Of a stretch of 32,000 bases of DNA, positions 1,560-17,718 are shown in pieces. The notes beneath the pieces are model-generated. The model searched no databases and was not told the DNA's origin. It was given only the letters and a program-made list of their open reading frames with translations. The DNA lies in NCBI RefSeq assembly GCF_000008305.1, contig NC_006055.1, positions 1-32,000 on the forward strand, written 5' to 3'. Source of the DNA: Mesoplasma florum L1. GTDB taxonomy: Bacteria; Bacillota_I; Bacilli_A; Mycoplasmatales; Mycoplasmataceae. The stretch's first letter is position 1; each line of letters starts with the position of its first letter. The position numbers and the translations under genes were made by a program.

Positions 1560-2681
1560 ATGAGATTAAGTATAAATAAATCAGTTCTATTAAATGAATT
1601 AACAAAGGCAAGTAAATTAATTGAACTTAAAAATGTTAACCCAGCATTACAAGGGGTTTATATGGAAGTTAGTTTTGATAAACTTGTTATAGTTTCATCA
1701 AACACGTCTACATCTTTTAAAGCTGAATTAAATAATGAAAACTCAGATTTAATCATAGAACAACCAGGACGTATATTAGTTAAACCTAAATTTATTTTAG
1801 AATTACTTAGAAAGTTAGACAGTGAGTTTGTAACACTTTCTACATTTGCTGAAAATGAATTAGAAATAATAACAGAAAAATCAAATTTAAAAGTTTCTAT
1901 ATTAAATGTAGAAGAATTCCCATTAATTGGTTTTGTTGAAAATGGTTTAGAATTATCTATTGATTCTCAAGAATTTAAAAGCACACTTACTCAAACTATT
2001 AGTTCAATTAATGAATGAAACCAAAAAGTTGTTTTAGCTGGAATGAATTTAAAAATAAAAGATAACAAAATATCATTTGTTACAACTGACTTATTTAGAG
2101 TTAGTTTAAAAGAAATCATTTTAAATGAAGCAACTAATCAGGAAGTAGATATTATTATTCCATACAAAACTTTAATAGAATTAAGAAACTTAATAGAAAA
2201 CGTTAAAGAATTTAAAATTATAATACATGATACTAATGCAACATTTAAATTAGATAATGATTTATTACAATCTACTTTAATTGATGGAAGATATCCAAAT
2301 GTTCATTCAGCATTCCCTACAACACATGAAATAAAATTAGAATTAAAAGCTAAAACATTATTAAAAGTTTTAAGTAGATTTGAATTAACAAACGATCAAA
2401 ACATTACTTCAGTTGTTAATTTAGAAATTCAACAAAGTGGAATTATATTAAAAACAACAATTGCTGAAACAGTTAAATATGAAGAAAAATTTACAGAATA
2501 TAAATATGAAGGTTCAAGTAATTTAAATATTAACTTTAATACAAAATATTTAATTGAAGCTATAAGAAGTTTTGATGATCAACTAATTCATTTAACTTTT
2601 AATTCTCAAAATAAACCTGTATTAATAACAGGAGCACAAAAAAGAGATTTGAAACAAGTAGTTTTACCAACTTATGCATAA
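1560..2681 (+). CDS. dnaN: DNA polymerase III beta subunit (sliding clamp)
   Basis: RBS AAGAGGTG lies 6 nt before ATG 1560. Track ORFs 1506..2018 and 2043..2681 share a frame and are joined through TGA 2016-2018. Length is 373 aa, and the position after dnaA is typical. The N-terminus MRLSINKSVLLNEL is clamp-like. Confidence 0.93.
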
Positions 2682-2682
2682 T

Positions 2683-2717
2683 AAAAAAATCAGGAAATTT
2701 CCTGATTTTATTTTTTT
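2683..2717. terminator. Bidirectional intrinsic terminator (dnaN convergent with the minus-strand gene)
   Basis: Palindrome ATCAGGA-aatt-TCCTGAT flanked by an A-run on the left and a T-run on the right, so it can serve both convergent genes. Confidence 0.7.
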
Positions 2718-3682
2718 GTATTATTAAACTTTAAAGAACCTTCAATATCTGAATATCCACGTTTTTTTGAAATAGTAACTGGGAAGTTAAAGAAATCTTC
2801 AAAGAAATCTTTAACACCACTTATACCAGCTAATTCACCAGTAACATATAATCCATTTTTAACAACACCACTTCTAACTAATGCTGAAGAATTTTCTAAA
2901 ACAGATGTTATTAAGCTTTTGTAGTTTGTAAAAGATTTAATGAAAATCTTTTTAAATTCTTCACTAACGCAAACAACACTTCTTCTTTCGTTAGTAATAA
3001 TATCTTTACCTACGATACTTAATTCTAATTCATCTCTTAATTTAATAATTGTTCCAAGTGATCATTTAATTTTTTCAATCATATCACTATCAACAGAAAT
3101 AGAATATTCTTCTTTAATAAATTGATTTAAAGAATCATCTAAAAATTTCTCAGCATAAATTGTTTCTTTTTCTTTAATTATTTTACCTTCAACAATTAAA
3201 GCAACTTTAGCGTAAGCTTGATTAATATCTAAAATTAATACTCCATATTCATCTTTAATATCTGCATTAGCACCTAAAGCAGAAAGTATTATTCTTGGAG
3301 AAAAAGAAATTGAAGCAAAGTTTGTATTCTCGCTAAATAAATTTTGGAAGAATTCTTGAATGAAGTCATTATCTGAGTTAGGACAAGATATAACAATTTT
3401 AGCTCCGTCAAATTCGTCTTTAAATCTTTCAACAAGAATTGTTACATATTGTTTAAAAATTTCTAAATCTTGAATAATGTACTTATCAAGAATATTAACA
3501 ACTTTTAAAGGATCATCTAGTCTACCAATAGTATTTTTAACATCACGACCATATAAAACAATTTCAGTTGTTAAAACGTTTCAACAAACTAAACTAAAGT
3601 CATCGTAAATTTTGCCTTTCTCAGATGAAATTATTCTTGTAAATTCTTCACCAAAAACTATTCCTATTTTTTTATCACTCAT
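2708..3682 (-). CDS. Actin-fold MreB-like protein with degenerate nucleotide-binding motifs (hypothetical)
   Basis: Hand translation on the minus strand runs from ATG (complement of 3680-3682, RBS GTGAGGA upstream) to TAA (complement of 2708-2710). This gives 975 nt, 324 aa and two TGA Trp codons. The track misses it because there is no internal ATG/GTG/TTG after the first TGA. The protein is collinear with the MreB layout: IGIVFGEEFT at the phosphate-1 position, GRDVKNTIGR resembling MreB G.DAK.M.GR, LILDINQAYAKVAL at phosphate-2, and LYVTGELAGISGVKDFF at the adenosine motif. Confidence 0.75.
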
Positions 3683-3716
3683 AATATTCCTCACTTTTCT
3701 CACATTAATTATAGTA

Positions 3717-3722
3717 TATAAT
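3717..3722 (+). promoter_or_regulatory. Candidate -10 box (TATAAT) for rnmV-rsmA
   Basis: TATAAT lies about 28 nt upstream of the rnmV start, in the divergent intergenic region. No convincing -35 was found. Confidence 0.3.
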
Positions 3723-3750
3723 AAACTTAATGTTAGATATAGGTGAATTA

Positions 3751-4278
3751 ATGGCAAATGAAATAATTATTGTTGAAGGTAAATCAGATTCACAAAAATT
3801 AAAGAAAATTTATGGCGAAAATTTAATAACATTCGAAACAAATGGACTAGGAATTGATGATAAAAAATTAAATTCCATAAAAGAATTAAGTAAAAAAAAT
3901 AAAATTATAATTTTTACAGATCCAGACGGACCAGGTAAAAAAATTAGAGAAACAATAATTGAATTTTTAGATGTTGATGTTTTTAATGCATTTGTTTCAA
4001 AGCAAGATATTGATAAAAATTCTAAAAAAATAGGTTTAGCTGAAGCAAGTGAAGAAGCTATTAAAAAAGCTTTAGATAATTTAATTACATATAATAAAAA
4101 AAATATTTCAATTTCTTGAGATGAATATGTTAAAAATGATTTTTACATAAAAGCAAACAGAATTATAATTGCTAATCATTTTAATTTGAGTGAAGATATG
4201 AGTTCAAAGAGTTTATTCAAATGATTAAATTGAATGAATTTAAAAGTTAAAGATATAGAAAAAATAATAGGTGAGTAG
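3751..4278 (+). CDS. rnmV: Ribonuclease M5 (Toprim domain, 5S rRNA maturase)
   Basis: RBS AGGTGA lies 4 nt before ATG 3751. Toprim motifs IIIVEGKSDSQKL and IIIFTDPDGPGKKIR are present. The frame continues through TGA at 4117, 4222 and 4231 to TAG 4276-4278, giving 175 aa. Confidence 0.88.
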
Positions 4279-4279
4279 A

Positions 4280-5083
4280 ATGAAAGTTGAAGCAAAGAAA
4301 AAATTTGGTCAAAACTTTATTAGTGATCAAAATTTAATTAATAAGATAGTTTCAATATTAGGTAATGATAAAGATCAACTAATTATAGAAATTGGTCCAG
4401 GAACAGGAGCACTAACTAAATTACTTGCACAAAAATATAACAAAGTAGTAGCAATAGAAATTGATACTGACATGGAGCCTATTTTAAAAAAAGAAATAAC
4501 AAATGACAATTTCGAATTATTTCTTTCAGATGTGTTATTAGTTGATTTTGAAAAATTAATAAAAGAAAAAAGACAACATGAAAATCAAAAAGTTTCAATA
4601 ATTTCTAACATGCCTTACTATATAACAAGTGAAATACTTTTTAGAACATTAAATGTAAGTGATAAGTTAACAAAAGCTGTTTTTATGATGCAAAAAGAAG
4701 TTGCTATTAGAGTGTGTTCATATAAAGGCGAAAATAATTACAATAATCTTTCAGTTGCTTGTGAATTTTATGCAGATAAAAAATATGAGTTTACAGTTCC
4801 TAAACATATGTTCTACCCAGTACCGAAAGTGGATTCTGCAATAATATCATTAACATTCAACAATAAATACACTGAACAAATTAAAGACAAAGATAAATTC
4901 TTAACATTTTTAAGAAAAATATTTAATAACAGAAGAAAAACAATATTGAATAATTTATCAAATGTAACTAATGACAAAACAAAAGCTAATGAAATCCTTG
5001 ATAATCTTAATATTGATAAATCATTAAGACCTGAAGTAGTTGGTTTAGAAGACTTTATTAGAATTTACAACAAAACTAGATAA
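4280..5083 (+). CDS. rsmA: 16S rRNA (adenine1518/1519-N6)-dimethyltransferase
   Basis: RBS AGGTGA precedes ATG 4280. Motifs: KKKFGQNF, SAM-binding IIEIGPGTGALT, and NMPYYITS. Length is 267 aa. Confidence 0.93.
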   Translation: MKVEAKKKFGQNFISDQNLINKIVSILGNDKDQLIIEIGPGTGALTKLLAQKYNKVVAIEIDTDMEPILKKEITNDNFELFLSDVLLVDFEKLIKEKRQHENQKVSIISNMPYYITSEILFRTLNVSDKLTKAVFMMQKEVAIRVCSYKGENNYNNLSVACEFYADKKYEFTVPKHMFYPVPKVDSAIISLTFNNKYTEQIKDKDKFLTFLRKIFNNRRKTILNNLSNVTNDKTKANEILDNLNIDKSLRPEVVGLEDFIRIYNKTR

Positions 5084-9836: not shown

Positions 9837-12362
9837 ATGGAAATAAAAATATATGCTCCTGTTGATTGTGAAGTTTTAACTATTGATAAATGTTCTGATA
9901 AAGCTTTTTCACAAAAACTATTAGGAGATGGGCTTCTTATTAAACCGAAAAAAGGTAACTTTACTTTGCCGTTTGATGAAGCTAAAACTATTATGGTATT
10001 TGATACAAAACACGCATATGGTTTTGACATTAGCGGTGTTGGTATTTTAATACATTGTGGGCTTGAAACAGTAAACTTAAATGGTGAACCATTTTCAACA
10101 AGTCTGCAACCAAACCAAACGGTTAAAAAGGGCGAAAAAATATTTGATGTTGATTTAAAAATTTTGAAAAACAAAAATATTTCTTCAGAAACTCCAATCG
10201 TATTTGATAAAAATGTAAAAATAAAAAATTTAAGGGAAGGTTCATATAAACAAGGTGAATTAATTTGTAATATTGAATTTTTAAATGAGAATAAAGATCA
10301 AGAAATTAAAATTGATTCATTAGAAGATTTTTTTAATGTAAAAAATAAATATCAAAAAATTGCTTTTGATATTAATAAATGTGTTGGTAATAAAGAAAAT
10401 TATAAAAATGTTTATAACTGTATGACAAGACTTAGATTTCAAATAAAAAACAAAGAATTAGTAAATGAAGAAGAACTTCAAAAAATTAGTCTTGTAAAAC
10501 AACTTGTTTGAAATGGGGCAGAACTTCAGGTAATTATAGGGCAAGAAGTTTATAAAGTAAAAGATGAAGTTGTTGCCCAAAATGAATTTGTTGAATCTGT
10601 TGTTAAAGATGCCAATAAAGAAAAAAAATCAATTATTGGTAAATTTATGCAATTAATTGGAGGAACCTTAATTAGACAAATTCCCGTAATGACTGGGTGT
10701 GGAATCATTCAAGCTTTAATGGCCTTGTTGGTTATTGGGGGTATTATGCCTTCAATAGTTACATCAGGAACACCTGGTGAAGGACAAATATCTTTATTTG
10801 ATCCTAATCTTAATGCAGGTTGAGTTGCCTTATTTATTATTGCTAGAAGCGCAACATACTTTGCAGGTATAGTTGTTGCATATTCAGCTAGTGAGTACTT
10901 CGGTTTAAATCCAATTTTAGGTATAACAATTGGTATTATTCTTTCATCTCCACTTATTTTCTTATATGGTGGTCCAAATGGAATTGGTGAGGAAAAACTT
11001 TGAATTAATTTAGGTGAATTAAATACAAACAACATACCATTTAATAATATAACTAGAATATTTAAGATAGCGCCGTTAGGGACGAAAGTATTTGTTATTA
11101 TGCCTGTTATTTGAATTGCATCAAAAATTAACACATGAGTGTTAAAATGAATGCCAACAGCTTTAGATTTAATGTTTAGACCATTTATTTTATTCTTGGT
11201 TTGTTCACTTGTTGGATTCTTCTTATTTGCACCTGTTTGATATACTTTTGAAGCTTTATTTGGTGCACTTATGTATTATGTAACTAGTGCACCATTAGGT
11301 ATTGGTGTAGGAATTTATGTAGGAATGTGACAACTTTGTGTTATTTTCGGATTACACGGTCCATTAGGAATAGCTGCTCAAGTTGAATATTTATCAAACG
11401 GAGGTTGATCATACCTTGCAATTGGTGGTTCAGTTTCAGTTTGAGCTCAAGTTGGGGCATTAATTGGAGTTGCTATTATAACAAGAGATAGTGTATTAAA
11501 AAATCAAGCTTGGGGAATGGTTCCTATGGGACTTTTAGGAATTACAGAACCAATACTTTATGGAATAAACCTTCCTAAAAAAAGACCATTAATAGCGGGT
11601 ATAATGGCTGCATTTATTGCTGGAGCATTTATGAATTGAATGGGTGTTTCTATGAGAGCTCAAACCGGAATAGGTGTATTTGAAGCTATTGGATTCTTTG
11701 CTGATCCTACAATGGGAGGAACGGCAACTTTAGGTGGATTACAAAACGGATTATTCTATATTTTTGGTTGCCTATTATCAGTTGGTTCTGCAATTGGTAT
11801 AACAATGTTAATTTATAAAGAAAGATTTGAAGAAAAATCTTTAGTTGCTAAAACAACAAGAAAAATGTTTAAATATGTTGTTAAAGAAAAAGATTTTGAA
11901 AAAGAATTAGCAAAAAACTTAAAAGAAAATCTTAATGAAATATCACAAACTTATACAAAAGAAGAAAATAAATTTATTAAGGAACAAGAAAAAAATATTC
12001 AACAATATTTAAAATTAGTTGCAAAAATAAATGAAAAAAATATTCAAAATGATGAAAAAATTGAAAAATGTTATAAAGAAGGAAAAAAAGCAATTAAATC
12101 AAATAATAATAGTAAAGCTTTATTAATGAAAGAAAAAATTGATTCTCTTTCAAAATTAGATCTATCAGATTTAGAAAGAGAAAAAAATGAATTAAAATCA
12201 AAAATAGACTTTAATGGAATTAATGAAATTAAAAATCAAAAACTAAAACTTATTAATGCTATTGTTGATAAAGTTGAAAAAGAAAATAATGTTGATTTAT
12301 CAAAATATAAAAATGAATACTCAAAAGATGTTGATTCATTGTTATTAAATTATGCTTTATAG
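9837..12362 (+). CDS. PTS sugar transporter, fused EIIA-EIIB-EIIC (glucose/beta-glucoside family) with a charged C-terminal tail
   Basis: EIIA-Glc signature: KHAYGFD...GILIHCGLETVNLNG. EIIB phospho-Cys motif: NCMTRLRF. EIIC motif: GITEPILYGINLPKKRP. I checked the frame codon by codon from 10509 to 11640; it contains 10 TGA Trp codons and no TAA/TAG. I prefer start ATG 9837 (AAAGGAAA RBS) over ATG 9780. Stop is TAG 12360-12362, giving 841 aa. Confidence 0.88.
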
Positions 12363-12375
12363 AGAGAATTAAAAA

Positions 12376-13837
<1,462 letters not shown>

Positions 13838-13839
<2 letters not shown>

Positions 13840-13872
13840 AATAGTGCTCTTTAAGGGCACTATTTTATTTTA
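13838..13872 (+). terminator. Intrinsic terminator after GH1 paralog 1
   Basis: 12-bp stem AAAATAGTGCTC / GGGCACTATTTT (one G-U pair), loop TTTAA, then a T-rich tail. Confidence 0.7.
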
Positions 13873-13897
13873 TAATTATAAAAGAATAGAGGTTTTT

Positions 13898-14632
13898 ATG
13901 AAAGAAAAAATGGCTTTTAGATTTCTTGAAGAAATAGCTGAACAAGATTTCAATTTAACTAATAAATTAATAGCTGAAACTTTATTAGAAAATGCTATGA
14001 AAGGTCATTTTTTAGCTCAAAAAGACGTTTGTGATAAATGCTTTGTATCTGCAAGTACAATAACTAAATTCTCTAAAACTTTAGGTTATGAAGGTTTTCG
14101 TGAACTTATATTTTCATTAAAAAATGAATATGACGTAATTGCTCAAAAGAAAAAAACAATTGATAAAATTAATATATTTGAATCCATTGAATCATGAATA
14201 ATTAATTCTAAAAATTTTATTGAAAATTTAGGAAAAAATATAATTAATTCTAAAAGAATTAATATTTATTATTCTTATTGTTTAAAAAGCAGTGCAGAGT
14301 CTTTATATGAAACAATTCTTGGAATAAATAAAGATGTTTTTCTTATAAATCATAATCAAATATCAATAATTAATCATCAATTAAGAACAGGTGATATAAA
14401 CATATTCTTAGTATCTGGAAAAGATAACCAAACCCTTCTGAAATACTATCAGTATATTTTGGCTAATCAAAAATCATCAAATTTTGTAATTGCTTCAAAA
14501 CTAAGTAATTGAGTAGAAAAAAATAACGATTTTGCTATAACTTTTGATATTGGTGATGATTTTTCTCTTTCTTTATATAGAAATATAGCTCTTCAATGCT
14601 TGACATTAGAGTTGTTAAAATTAATAGTTTAA
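13898..14632 (+). CDS. RpiR/MurR-family transcriptional regulator (HTH plus SIS domain)
   Basis: RBS AGAGG precedes ATG 13898. The HTH region is AQKDVCDKCFVSASTITKFSKTLGYEGFRELIFSLK, followed by a SIS-like C-terminal half. The frame is joined through TGA 14195 and 14510. Stop is TAA 14630-14632, giving 244 aa. Confidence 0.8.
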
Positions 14633-14853
14633 ACTACTTTCTATTTTTAGAAGTATTTTTTTTATTTCTTTCAGAATATATAAATATATTGTTTTTAGGG
14701 ATAATTAAATTAGAAGAGCTTTTATTAAAATATTTGTTCTTTCCACCATCTAAATAATTTAATAGATTGGTGTAAAAAATTAAATTAAAACGAAAAAAGA
14801 ATTTTAAAAATATAAGAAATATTAACGTTTTATTATTTATGAAGGAGTAAGAA

Positions 14854-16248
14854 ATGAATAAATTTCCAAAAGATTTTTTATGAGGTGCGTCAACAAGCGC
14901 TTATCAATTTGAAGGAGCTATTAAACAAGGTGGTAAAGTAAGTTCTATTATGGATAGATTTGACGAACAGCCGTCATATCCAAAAGGAATAACAGGTTTT
15001 AAAGAGGCTTCAGATCACTATAATCATTGAAAAGAAGATGTAAAACTTATGTCTGAAATGGGATTCAAATCATATAGATTTTCGATTTCATGACCAAGAA
15101 TTATTAAAAATAAGGAAGGTGAAATTAATAAAGAAGGAATTAAATTTTATAATGATTTAATTGATGAACTTTTTAAACATAAAATTGAACCAATAGTGAC
15201 AATGTTTCATTTTGATATACCAGATTTTATCCAAGAAATTGGTGGTGTATGTACTAACGAATTTACAAAACAATTTGAAATTTACTCAGAAGTTTTATTT
15301 AAAAATTTTGGTTCAAAAATTAAATATTGATTAACAATAAACGAATTGAATATGTTTGCTCTAGCAGGACAAATTATTGGTGTTGTCCCAAGCGATCAAA
15401 AGATTAATTCATGACAATTAATGCACCATTTAAATGTTGCACAAGCTAAAGCTATTGTATTGTGTAGAAAAATTTGTCCATCTGCAAAAATAGGGCCTGC
15501 GCCAAATATTTCAACTGTTTACCCAGATTCAAATAAACCATTAGACTATGTAGCAAAATTAAATTTAGACATGGTTAGAAATTGAGTTTACTTAGATATT
15601 GTTTGTAGAGGTGAATATAGTCCAATATTTATTAATGGATTAAAAAAAATGGGACTTGAAATTACTATCACGGAGGAAGAAAAACAAATTCTTAAAAATT
15701 CTAAACCTGATTTTATTGCATTTAATTATTATTCAACAATGACTGTTAAAATGCCTACTGAAGAAAGTTTAAAGAATACAAAAAAAGATCAACAACAAGG
15801 ATTATCTATGCCAGGTTTTGGCGAAAGTGTTAAGAATGATAAACTTGAAAAAACTCAATTTGGTTGAGAGATTGACCCAGTTGGTTTTAGAAATACATTA
15901 AGAGAAGTTTATGACAGATATCAACTTCCAATCATGATAACAGAAAATGGAATCGGTGCAAGAGATGTTCTTGAAGAAGACGGAAAAATTCATGATAACT
16001 ACAGAATAGAATACTATGAAAAACACATACAGCAAATGGCTCTTGCAATTGCTGATGGAGTTGAAATGATTGGTTACATGCCTTGAAGTGCTATCGACTT
16101 AGTTTCGACTCACGAAGGTATTTCAAAAAGATATGGATTTGTATATGTTAACAGAGATGAATTTGATTTAAAAGATATGAAAAGATATAAAAAAGATAGT
16201 TTTCATTGATATAAAGAATTAATTAAAAATAATGGTGAAAATATTTAG
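14854..16248 (+). CDS. Glycoside hydrolase family 1 (phospho-)beta-glucosidase/galactosidase, divergent paralog 2
   Basis: RBS GAAGGAG precedes ATG 14854. N-terminus MNKFPKDFLWGASTSAYQFEGA. Motifs WLTINELN and MITENGIG are present. I checked the whole frame by hand; it contains 9 TGA Trp codons and no TAA/TAG. Length is 464 aa. Confidence 0.9.
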
Positions 16249-16263
16249 AGGAGATAGATACAT

Positions 16264-17718
16264 ATGACTAAAAAATTAGAATTTCCAAGCAATTTTTTAT
16301 GAGGTGGTGCTACTGCAGCATCTCAAATAGAAGGTGCTTATAATGTAGATGGAAAATCTCTTTCTGCTATTGAAATGATACCGTTTATTGAATTAAAAGA
16401 TAGAAAAGATTTATCACAAACAAGAAAGTTAACAACCCAAGATTTACTTGACTCTATTGAAAATAAAAAAGGTTTACATTACCCTAAAAGATTTGGAATA
16501 GACTTTTATCATAAATATAAAGAAGATATTGCTTTGTTTAAAGAAGCTGGAATGAAAGTGTTTAGAATGTCAGTTGCATGAACACGAATTTTTCCCAATG
16601 GAGATGAAACAGAACCTAATAGAAAAGGTCTAGAATTTTATAAAAACGTTTTTGAAGAATGCAAAAAACAAGGTTTAGAAATAATGGTAACTATAAATCA
16701 TTTTGACATGCCTTTTTCAATAATTCAAAAATATGGCGGATGAAAAAATAGACAAGTAATTGATATGTATTTTAAATACTCAAAAACTTTAATAGACGAA
16801 TTTCATAGCTATGTTAGATACTGATTACCTTTTAACGAAATCAATTTAGGTGTTTTATTTTCTGCAATGGGATTAGAGGGTAATAACGAAGAAAAAAGTT
16901 TAGCGGAAAGATTAGCAGGAACTTATCAGGATCTTCATAATCAATTTGTAGCGCAAGCAAAATTCATAGAGTATTCAAAAAAATTTAGTAATACAAAAGT
17001 TGGGTGTATGGTAGCAGATACAACAACATATGCAATTGATTGTAATCCAGTTAATGTTTTAGAAAATCAAAGAAAAGAACAAATGAAAAAGTTTTTTTAC
17101 TATGATGTTATGACAAAAGGAGAATATCCAAGCTATTCAAAAAGATACTTTAAAGAAAATGGGATTAATATTGTTAAAGAAAAAACAGATGATGAATTAC
17201 TTAAAAATAATACAGTTGAATTTTTATCATTCAGTTATTATATGTCTAGCACAATTGCTAAAGAAGAAGTTGAATTAACCGAGGGTAATTTAATGAAAAT
17301 GGGAAAAAATCCGTTTTTAGTTGCAACTGAATGAGGATGACAAATTGATCCTATTGGACTTAGATATTGCTTAAATCAGTTATGAGACAGATATCATTTA
17401 CCTTTATTTATTTCTGAAAATGGTATGGGTGTTTTAGAAACATTAAATGAAAATAATACTGTAGATGATGATTATCGAATTGAATATTTGAGTAGACACT
17501 TTGAACAAATGAGCGAAGCTATTAAAGACGGAGTAAATTTATTTGGATATACAATGTGAACACCTATTGATGTTGTTAGTGCAGGATCAAATGAAATGTC
17601 AAAAAGATATGGATTAATATTTGTAGATTATGATGATTATCATAGAGGAACAGGGAATAGATTTAAGAAAAAATCTTTTACTTGATTCCAAAACTTTATG
17701 AAAACAAGCGAAGTTTAA
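16264..17718 (+). CDS. 6-phospho-beta-glucosidase, glycoside hydrolase family 1 (paralog 3, close to paralog 1)
   Basis: RBS AGAGGAG precedes ATG 16264. N-terminus MTKKLEFPSNFLWGGATAASQIEGAY. Motifs LPFNEIN and FISENGMG are present. It shares long identical blocks with 12376..13839, e.g. YPKRFGIDFYH, GWQIDPIGLRY and [14 protein letters not shown]. Length is 484 aa. Confidence 0.92.

Follow-up and report, generated by a model that had tools for sequence, protein, structure and literature searches.

Why a wall-less, non-helical, non-motile, ovoid bacterium keeps a gene for an MreB-type actin is the question raised by mfl003, the sole annotated mreB homologue of Mesoplasma florum. We analysed a window made up of bases 1-32000 of the M. 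florum L1 chromosome, in which window and chromosome coordinates are the same. The mfl003 coding sequence occupies 2708..3682 on the minus strand (3682..2708 in the direction of reading) and comprises 324 codons that are uninterrupted under genetic code 4, in which TGA specifies Trp. Two in-frame TGA codons, at 3581-3583 (W34) and 3062-3064 (W207), split the frame under table 11, which is why the gene is missing from table-11 lists of open reading frames (ORFs); an initial annotation made from the sequence alone had described a 324-residue minus-strand protein absent from its ORF track, and the code 4 translation bears this out. The protein is identical to AAT75359.1/Q6F2B6, "actin-like protein [Mesoplasma florum L1]", and carries the RefSeq name "rod shape-determining protein". 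Given its table-4 translation, exact database match, Pfam assignment, AlphaFold2 model, Foldseek comparison and detected peptides, we describe the product as an MreB-fold protein, apparently derived from Spiroplasma MreB3, and most likely a 'pseudo-MreB' that serves as a structural component or adaptor and not as an enzyme. Databases already list the gene under the name MreB; what is new is the interpretation.

Mfl003 matches the Pfam family MreB_Mbl (PF06723) over residues 4-320 with E=1.7e-38 and a score of 132.7 bits (cutoff 27), a match shared by 12/12 scanned members of the orthologous family described below, and its PDB matches to MreB3, MreB5 and Thermotoga MreB have E values from 1e-38 to 1e-18, far beyond chance. 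The AlphaFold2 model, computed from an alignment of 46 sequences, has a predicted local distance difference test score (pLDDT) of 92.9 and a predicted template modeling (TM) score (pTM) of 0.88, and in it Mfl003 is predicted to keep the four-subdomain MreB fold. The top Foldseek match of the model is Spiroplasma eriocheiris MreB3 (SpeMreB3, 7E1C/7E1G; TM 0.88-0.89, root-mean-square deviation 2.6-2.9 Å), followed by S. citri MreB5 (ScMreB5, TM 0.83-0.85) and the Thermotoga, Geobacillus and Caulobacter MreBs (0.79-0.84); overall, 25 MreB chains fall at TM 0.79-0.89, compared with 0.67-0.77 for MamK and actin. The profile and structure comparisons that the initial annotation had suggested therefore both return MreB. 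An FtsA, PilM or ParM identity was rejected on model scores (the TIGR01174 ftsA model requires 175.85 bits and gave 23.4, and neither FtsA nor PilM was matched in Pfam). The M. chauliocola orthologue bears the UniRef name 'Pilus assembly protein PilM'.

Mfl003 does not reach the NCBIfam cutoffs, scoring 99.3 against 293 for NF010539, 71.3 against 365.75 for TIGR00904 and 106.5 against 515 for NF010540. Scores for NF010539 form a gradient from ScMreB5 (357 bits) through S. mirum MreB3 (301) and the MreB3-type protein of S. turonicum (212) to the Mesoplasma family (99-132). Relative to the canonical MreB, Mbl and MreBH proteins of walled bacteria (T. maritima 1JCE, C. crescentus 4CZ*, Geobacillus 7ZPT), Mfl003 has PF06723 and the fold in common (TM 0.79-0.84) and keeps the hinge and core glycines G23, G45, G137, G147, G225, G277, G282 and G315, although identity is only 17-21%. 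It differs from them in that its ATP site, its membrane loop and the contact motif T-P-P-E-L-x-x-D are lost, in that it fails the NCBIfam MreB cutoffs and in that there is neither cell wall nor RodZ nor elongasome for it to organise.

The nucleotide site was examined by placing the canonical motifs with HMMER and MAFFT alignments of 13 family members and 37 canonical and Spiroplasma MreBs, using ScMreB5 numbering for reference positions. The four motif placements of the initial annotation hold in these alignments. The phosphate-1 loop (residues 6-17, IGIVFGEEFTRI; 3632..3667, minus strand) is degenerate: D-x-G-T-x-N-T reads V-F-G-E-E-F-T, with D12 replaced by V9, T15 by E12 and N17 by F14, and G11 kept. 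Where 37/37 canonical MreBs have D at the D12 position, 13/13 family members have V or I. The segment GRDVKNTIGR corresponds to G..AK.MIGK. At the position of the catalytic glutamate (ScMreB5 E134, CcMreB E140; Asp in MreB3), Mfl003 has R130 (codon 3293..3295, minus strand); the family shows R in five members, K in three, T in three and S in two, compared with E in 30/37 canonical proteins. The phosphate-2 loop (residues 149-162, LILDINQAYAKVAL; 3197..3238, minus strand) retains D152, the equivalent of D156 and mostly kept across the family, but DIGGGTT reads DINQAYA, with GGG replaced by NQA, T161 by Y157 and D163 by K159. The catalytic motif E…T-X-[D/E] defined by Takahashi 2022 (CcMreB E140, T167, E169) consequently reads R130…Y157-A158-K159, and its three positions are occupied across the family by R/K/T/S, K/N/Y/C and T/K/E/H/Y. 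In ScMreB5, D12, E134 and D156 hold the water shell of Mg2+, and E134 and T161 are positioned at the catalytic water (Pande 2022).

The adenosine motif of Mfl003, LYVTGELAGISGVKDFF, is altered from GGGA to GELA with G282 kept, and lies within a segment that also holds the most conserved helix of the family (residues 278-298, LYVTGELAGISGVKDFFEDFF; 2789..2851, minus strand). This loop shows a gradient from canonical GGGA through MreB3 GGCA and Apis-type GGLA/GGVA to G[EDRTV]L[AGS] in the family. All three nucleotide loops are degenerate in 13/13 members, each of which lacks the phosphate-binding Gly/Thr loops, the phosphate-1 Asp that coordinates Mg, the second adenosine-motif Gly and E…T-X-[D/E]. 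The replacements vary by species, which indicates relaxed constraint in the pocket rather than adaptation to a new ligand, and we infer from these alignments that Mfl003 no longer binds or hydrolyses ATP in the manner of actin and is a pseudo-ATPase. The initial annotation held that the key Asp, Gly and Thr residues are replaced in all three motifs; the degeneracy of the three loops stands, whereas the phosphate-2 Asp (D152), G11 and G282 are retained. It had also overlooked the exchange of the catalytic glutamate (E134 to R130), the MreB3 ancestry and the loss of membrane anchors and of acidic filament-contact residues.

The actin/Hsp70 superfamily includes members that have become pseudo-ATPases, for example nuclear actin-related proteins with degenerate nucleotide sites. 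In these the actin fold was kept as a structural or binding module after its nucleotide chemistry was lost, as we propose for Mfl003, although there is no homology with Mfl003 beyond the superfamily fold. The searchable literature yielded no example of a bacterial pseudo-ATPase derived from MreB. S. citri MreB5 (PDB 7BVY/7BVZ) shares the MreB fold with Mfl003 and the basic residue K57 kept in it, and provides a precedent for filament assembly independent of nucleotide state (Pande 2022). It is however an active ATPase by way of D12, E134, D156 and T161, where Mfl003 has V9, R130, D152 and Y157, and its membrane binding relies on I95/W96 and a basic tail at the C terminus, where Mfl003 has E90/F91 and no tail.

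No membrane anchor was found in the family alignment, in which we looked for an N-terminal amphipathic helix, a hydrophobic loop and a basic C-terminal tail or extension. Mfl003 begins just four residues ahead of strand 1, and the loop at ScMreB5 I95/W96, K-D-E-F-D-G in this protein, consists of polar or charged residues throughout the family and is 2 residues shorter. The surfaces through which MreB subunits join into antiparallel double protofilaments are also remodelled. Fifty-six columns are conserved to at least 90% in the 37 canonical and Spiroplasma MreBs; 14 of them are kept in the family and 27 lost. On subdomain IIA, T-P-P-E-L-x-x-D is replaced by NSSALVRSG (residues 264-272; 2867..2893, minus strand), as seen in the alignments and in per-site conservation. 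In SpeMreB3, E285 and D289 of this motif make the IIA-IIB' and IIA-IB' longitudinal contacts of the protofilament (D289-K70'). The E285 position is E in 37/37 canonical proteins and Y, L, I, N or F in 13/13 family members, and the D289 position changes from D in 37/37 to G in ten and S in three; MreB3-type proteins keep the two residues in 8/9 and 9/9 cases. The basic residue on the other side of the intra-protofilament contact (ScMreB5 K57, SpeMreB3 K70) is R or K in 12/13 members, and a new arginine, R270 on IIA, is present in 12/13. On IIB, a segment defined by per-site conservation and the family alignment (residues 198-221, DSDMIEKIKWSLGTIIKLRDELEL; 3020..3091, minus strand) contains the family-specific conserved patch IKLRDELEL (213-221) and position 200, which is E in eight and D in five members compared with R in 24 and K in eight canonical proteins. 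The longitudinal contact thus shows an apparent reversal of charge, with R270 of IIA and D/E200 of IIB' at the places where canonical E/D (37/37) would face R/K (32/37).

The family of which Mfl003 is a member is small and well delimited. An exhaustive HMMER search of 1.84 billion representatives returned five family representatives (338-176 bits) and then a drop to 119 bits, where Spiroplasma MreBs of 26% identity begin. Carriers comprise M. florum, M. grammopterae, M. entomophilum, M. coleopterae, M. tabanidae, M. chauliocola, M. corruscae, M. syrphidae, M. seiffertii and M. photuris, together with Tullyiplasma ([Acholeplasma]) multilocale, Williamsoniiplasma somnilux, W. lucivorax and several metagenomic sequences; this list records positive matches and does not speak to absence from the Mycoides cluster or Entomoplasma sensu stricto. 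At least 13 species or lineages, at 34-98% identity, carry an uninterrupted ORF. Some distant HMMER matches place an MreB-like domain inside much longer proteins with fusion architectures, for example at residues 689-970 of 1010.

The family, spanning Mesoplasma, Williamsoniiplasma and Tullyiplasma, is monophyletic, in 200/200 bootstraps of an 81-taxon neighbour-joining (NJ) tree, and the tree, profile comparison, shared derived residues and synteny indicate that it descends vertically from the Spiroplasma MreB3 lineage. The phylogeny with the Spiroplasma paralogs that the initial annotation had called for groups the family with MreB3-type proteins, to the exclusion of MreB2, MreB4 and MreB5, in 180-189/200 bootstraps and never the reverse, with Apis-clade-type MreB3 as the usual sisters. 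In BLASTP, 12/12 family members score best to S. mirum MreB3 and not to MreB2, 4 or 5, and hhalign scores of the family are 395 with MreB3-type, 274 with MreB5/2, 262 with MreB4 and 255 with canonical MreB. K245, F251, K291, F298, L133 and L151 are derived residues common to the family and MreB3-type proteins, as is the C-terminal motif G[VIL]K.F[FL]E.[FY]F.[FI]P, and a deletion of 2 residues is common to the family and Apis-type MreB3. SpeMreB3 is the best match to Mfl003 in sequence, profile and structure, which likewise points to the MreB3 lineage.

The two groups also share a genomic slot. In M. florum, mfl003 is divergent from rnmV (3751-4278) and ksgA (4280-5083), which lie on the plus strand at 3751..5083 and are its conserved syntenic partners according to the genome annotation and the compared loci. 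The divergent rnmV-ksgA arrangement recurs in S. mirum, S. turonicum, M. chauliocola, M. corruscae and metagenomic (Logan) loci, including that of a relative 46% identical to Mfl003, and in both of these Spiroplasma species the mreB2-mreB3-(…)-mreB4-mreB5 cluster begins directly beside it. The Spiroplasma slot adjoining rnmV-ksgA is strictly that of mreB2, and a match with the mfl003 slot requires the loss of mreB2. Horizontal transfer was rejected as the origin of the family on the basis of the conserved rnmV-ksgA synteny and the nesting of the family inside the Spiroplasma MreBs. In S. mirum, ada and ogt-like genes lie between mreB2 and mreB3; in S. turonicum mreB2 and mreB3 are adjacent, argS follows mreB3, and a second mreB5-like copy is present.

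Despite this kinship, identity between Spiroplasma MreB3 and the family is only 26-33%. MreB3 keeps phosphate-1 (DLGT), phosphate-2 (DIGGG) and adenosine GG loops and the contact residues E285 and D289, and it binds adenylyl imidodiphosphate (AMPPNP) and polymerises upon nucleotide binding, whereas no family member has these loops intact or either acidic residue. The Citri-group MreB3 has an N-terminal amphipathic helix, which the Mesoplasma family lacks, and the family exists in non-helical cells without MreB1/2/4/5 or fibril. MreB3 already lacks E…T-X-[D/E], and its ATPase activity is among the lowest in the actin superfamily (Takahashi 2022). The MreB3 signature at these positions (Glu to Asp, Thr to Lys; Takahashi 2020, 2022) is seen in the family only as Lys at the Thr position in 4/13 members (Tyr in M. 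florum), with Asp at the Glu position in 0/13.

Degenerate as its nucleotide site is, the protein is under strong constraint. The Nei-Gojobori ratio of nonsynonymous to synonymous substitution (dN/dS) of mfl003 is 0.051 against M. grammopterae and 0.096 against M. chauliocola, and M. florum and M. chauliocola are 88.6% identical in Mfl003, compared with 83.3% in DnaA, 81.8% in DnaN, 70.7% in RnmV and 86.4% in KsgA. Purifying selection on mfl003 is no weaker than that on dnaA and dnaN. Across the family alignment, which includes members down to 34% identity, 29 columns are invariant, and its per-site conservation correlates at only 0.17 with that of canonical MreB. The largest excess of family over canonical conservation is at residues 290-298 (VKDFFEDFF; 0.88 vs 0.51), followed by 270-278, 143-151 (KDEYG…), 213-221 and 247-255, while the phosphate-2 loop and several canonical signatures are less conserved in the family than in MreB. 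Composition has shifted too, glycine being 5-6% in the family vs 8.5-11% in MreB and aromatic residues 8-11% vs 4-7%. We infer a shift of family-specific constraint away from the nucleotide cleft and towards the two ends of the molecule, namely the bottom of IIA (143-147, 270-278 and 290-298) and the top of IIB (200-221).

What such a protein does is weighed here among several readings. The one that we prefer, tentatively and with a chance approaching even, is that Mfl003 is an MreB3-derived pseudo-ATPase that self-associates independently of nucleotide and serves as a scaffold. Subunits would join head-to-tail without nucleotide into short, static, cytoplasmic oligomers or filaments, and these assemblies would act as a scaffold for a partner and would not form a dynamic cytoskeleton bound to the membrane and driven by ATP; the 120 subunits in a cell would give at most about 0.3 µm of double filament in a cell of 0.4-0.7 µm (Matteau 2020). 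Self-association is preferred because oppositely charged conserved patches lie at complementary ends, because the K57/K70-type basic residue is kept and because Spiroplasma MreB3 has itself been proposed as a static anchor filament. Several observations weigh against it. The self-association step is itself weak: none of the 13 members has the equivalents of E285 and D289, the canonical GRD..G.P and IA-helix signatures have disappeared from the family, and the facing of R270 and D/E200' is putative. For a cytoskeleton, moreover, about 120 copies in each cell are few. Mfl003 retains, besides D152, G11 and G282, the IIB residues E203 and K206 (AExIK motif), whose equivalents we take to lie near the ribose and base in MreB structures, and given D152, E203 and K206 it may still bind some nucleoside or nucleotide. 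The MreB3 grouping comes from distance trees and profile scores on two fast-evolving lineages, and long-branch attraction may contribute to it in part. Nearly as likely as self-association is a purely monomeric adaptor, a possible reading in which the actin fold no longer assembles and Mfl003 acts as a regulator or chaperone-like partner of another cellular protein, which it would bind by its new conserved surfaces (the IIB tip, the barbed-end-like cleft loop KDEYG and helices 241-263, 267-276 and 290-298). The lost acidic contacts and interface signatures, the low copy number, the weak correlation of conservation with canonical MreB and the lack of a membrane-binding element in the family would all suit an adaptor, but the retention of R or K in 12/13 members at the K57/K70 position and the oppositely charged new patches at both complementary ends are as expected of a remodelled self-contact, and the conserved neighbourhood offers no evident candidate partner. 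Self-assembly as a nucleotide-free bacterial actin through the charge-reversed interface, carrying out a motility-independent function inherited from MreB3 (in cell size, division or a cytoplasmic complex, for example), is a more specific and rather unlikely proposal; if true, it would explain why the MreB3-type paralog alone survived the loss of the Spiroplasma cytoskeleton and would provide the first ATP-independent polymerising MreB and a handle on the role of MreB3 in Spiroplasma.

The remaining readings are improbable to different degrees. A working nucleotide-dependent MreB, binding ATP or GTP and hydrolysing it slowly with non-canonical residues, in the manner of an extreme MreB3, and forming membrane-associated filaments that contribute to the ovoid shape, has little likelihood, even though D152, G11, G282, E203 and K206 are kept, MreB3 without the catalytic motif still polymerises on nucleotide binding (Takahashi 2022) and M. 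florum cells are ovoid rather than perfectly round (Matteau 2020): the phosphate-1 Asp, phosphate-2 GGGT and adenosine GG have given way in all 13 members to bulky, variable residues that differ by species, all three kinds of membrane anchor are missing, and the score with the NCBIfam MreB model is one third of its cutoff. The initial annotation had proposed an inactive MreB descendant, which the degenerate site of Mfl003 and the selection on the protein support, with a scaffold-type role as a reasonable possibility; its further suggestion, that the position between dnaN and rnmV implies a function tied to the chromosome or replication origin, fared less well and has only a slight chance of being right. 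The gene is 1.3 kb from the dnaA-dnaN spacer, in which two DnaA-box-like TTTTCCACA sites lie in inverted orientation at 1359-1367 and 1429-1437, the order dnaA-dnaN-mreBL-rnmV is kept in M. florum, M. chauliocola and M. corruscae, and passages in reviews link MreB to chromosome segregation. However, adjacency to dnaN is found in the Mesoplasma loci only and not in Spiroplasma, and since the rnmV-ksgA linkage also heads the Spiroplasma mreB cluster, which in S. mirum and S. turonicum (mreB2-5) lies on the other side of oriC, the linkage predates the move beside dnaN and the place close to oriC is a matter of inherited synteny. In M. chauliocola an alpha/beta-hydrolase gene separates the mreB-like gene from dnaN; M. 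florum and M. corruscae lack this insertion, and dnaN adjacency is therefore not strictly conserved. A scan of the window found no DnaA-box-like sites flanking mfl003, and its 13 boxes with one mismatch, against 12 expected, are at chance level. The family proteins are acidic (isoelectric point 4.9-6.7), a Pfam scan found no DNA-binding domain, and mfl003 is monocistronic with its own promoter and terminator. Least tenable is the reading that mfl003 is a remnant of the Spiroplasma cytoskeleton that has no function and is being lost. The gene, which is core in 13 strains, is non-essential by transposon mutagenesis and has no homologue in JCVI-syn3.0 (Baby 2018), it can be dispensed with in rich medium, the literature treats mreB as lost in the clade, and half of the MreB-invariant positions are gone; against this stand the intact ORF in all those lineages, the low dN/dS with better conservation than DnaA and DnaN, the family-invariant columns, and a strong promoter with a mean expression of 2046 fragments per kilobase per million (FPKM), compared with 630 for uniform coverage, 193 for dnaA and 643 for dnaN, with five validated peptides and about 120 molecules per cell (Matteau 2020). 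The selection and expression data effectively refute a relic.

The published tables of these studies file mfl003 as "Rod shape-determining protein MreB" (Baby 2018) and, with FtsZ, as one of the sole two "cytoskeleton" ORFs of M. florum (Matteau 2020), and neither main text discusses it. The protein is already named 'actin-like protein' or 'rod shape-determining protein MreB' in GenBank, RefSeq, KEGG, RAST and the M. florum supplements, and the Mesoplasma and Williamsoniiplasma orthologues ATZ19114.1, ATZ20520.1, ATZ21211.1 and ATZ18390.1 are named 'cell shape determining protein MreB' in GenBank; to judge by the accession series, these records probably belong to the genomes released with Lo 2018. 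The statement in the initial annotation that MreB among Mollicutes is generally reported only for Spiroplasma and Haloplasma therefore describes the searchable literature and not the databases. According to Lo 2018, the Mycoides-Entomoplasmataceae clade has lost mreB, a statement repeated in papers on Mollicute evolution and on the Spiroplasma cytoskeleton; the Mesoplasma-family copies go unmentioned in MreB phylogeny papers up to 2026, and in the searchable literature we found no paper discussing these Mesoplasma/Entomoplasma mreB-like genes and no account of their MreB3 ancestry, the family-wide loss of ATP site, anchors and filament contacts, the strength of selection or the contradiction of the stated loss. 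The present analysis corrects that repeated statement, as at least 13 non-helical species or lineages keep one copy. The family is a natural experiment, an MreB apparently deprived of ATP chemistry, anchors and canonical contacts and yet under strong selection, that bears on uses of the actin fold without nucleotide turnover, and it may hint that MreB3, of all Spiroplasma paralogs the most enigmatic, has a role other than in swimming. Transposon mutants, genome transplantation and quantitative omics make the near-minimal M. florum a tractable organism, and mfl003 is a conserved, non-essential gene about which minimal-genome designs must decide; the family should interest those working on bacterial actins, Spiroplasma motility and minimal cells.

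The signals read from the DNA around mfl003 agree with its published transcription. The promoter and 5' untranslated region (UTR) occupy 3683..3736 (minus strand), where our scan places a -35-like CTAACA at 3731-3736, a -10 TATAAT at 3708-3713 and a Shine-Dalgarno sequence, GAGGA, at 3688-3692, 5 nt 5' of the ATG. Transcription start sites (TSSs) with -10 boxes were mapped by 5'-RACE at 3701 and 3706 (Matteau 2020 Dataset), and the gene is carried by the monocistronic unit TU_003 with a 19-nt 5'UTR (Matteau 2020). Downstream, mfl003 converges on dnaN (1560..2681, plus strand), and the two share a bidirectional intrinsic terminator at 2686..2709, AAAATCAGGAAATTTCCTGATTTT, a perfect 10-bp stem with T-runs on both strands that overlaps the mfl003 stop codon; 0.1 such hairpins are expected in shuffled sequence, and a stem-loop at 2689-2705 was published as the terminator (Matteau 2020). 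Within mfl003, on the minus strand, the 'non-coding' unit TU_NC_001 (2689-3389; Matteau 2020) arises from an internal TSS, 3388/3389, whose -10 box lies at 3395-3401, and our scan also found promoter-like hexamers nearby. A truncated protein from this start seems unlikely because the next in-frame ATG is codon 201.

Elsewhere in the window, positions 9837-17718 contain a sucrose-type phosphotransferase system (PTS) gene, three 6-phospho-beta-glucosidase paralogs and a helix-turn-helix (HTH) regulator. These genes are non-core among M. florum strains (Baby 2018), which suggests an accessory sugar-utilisation island near the origin.

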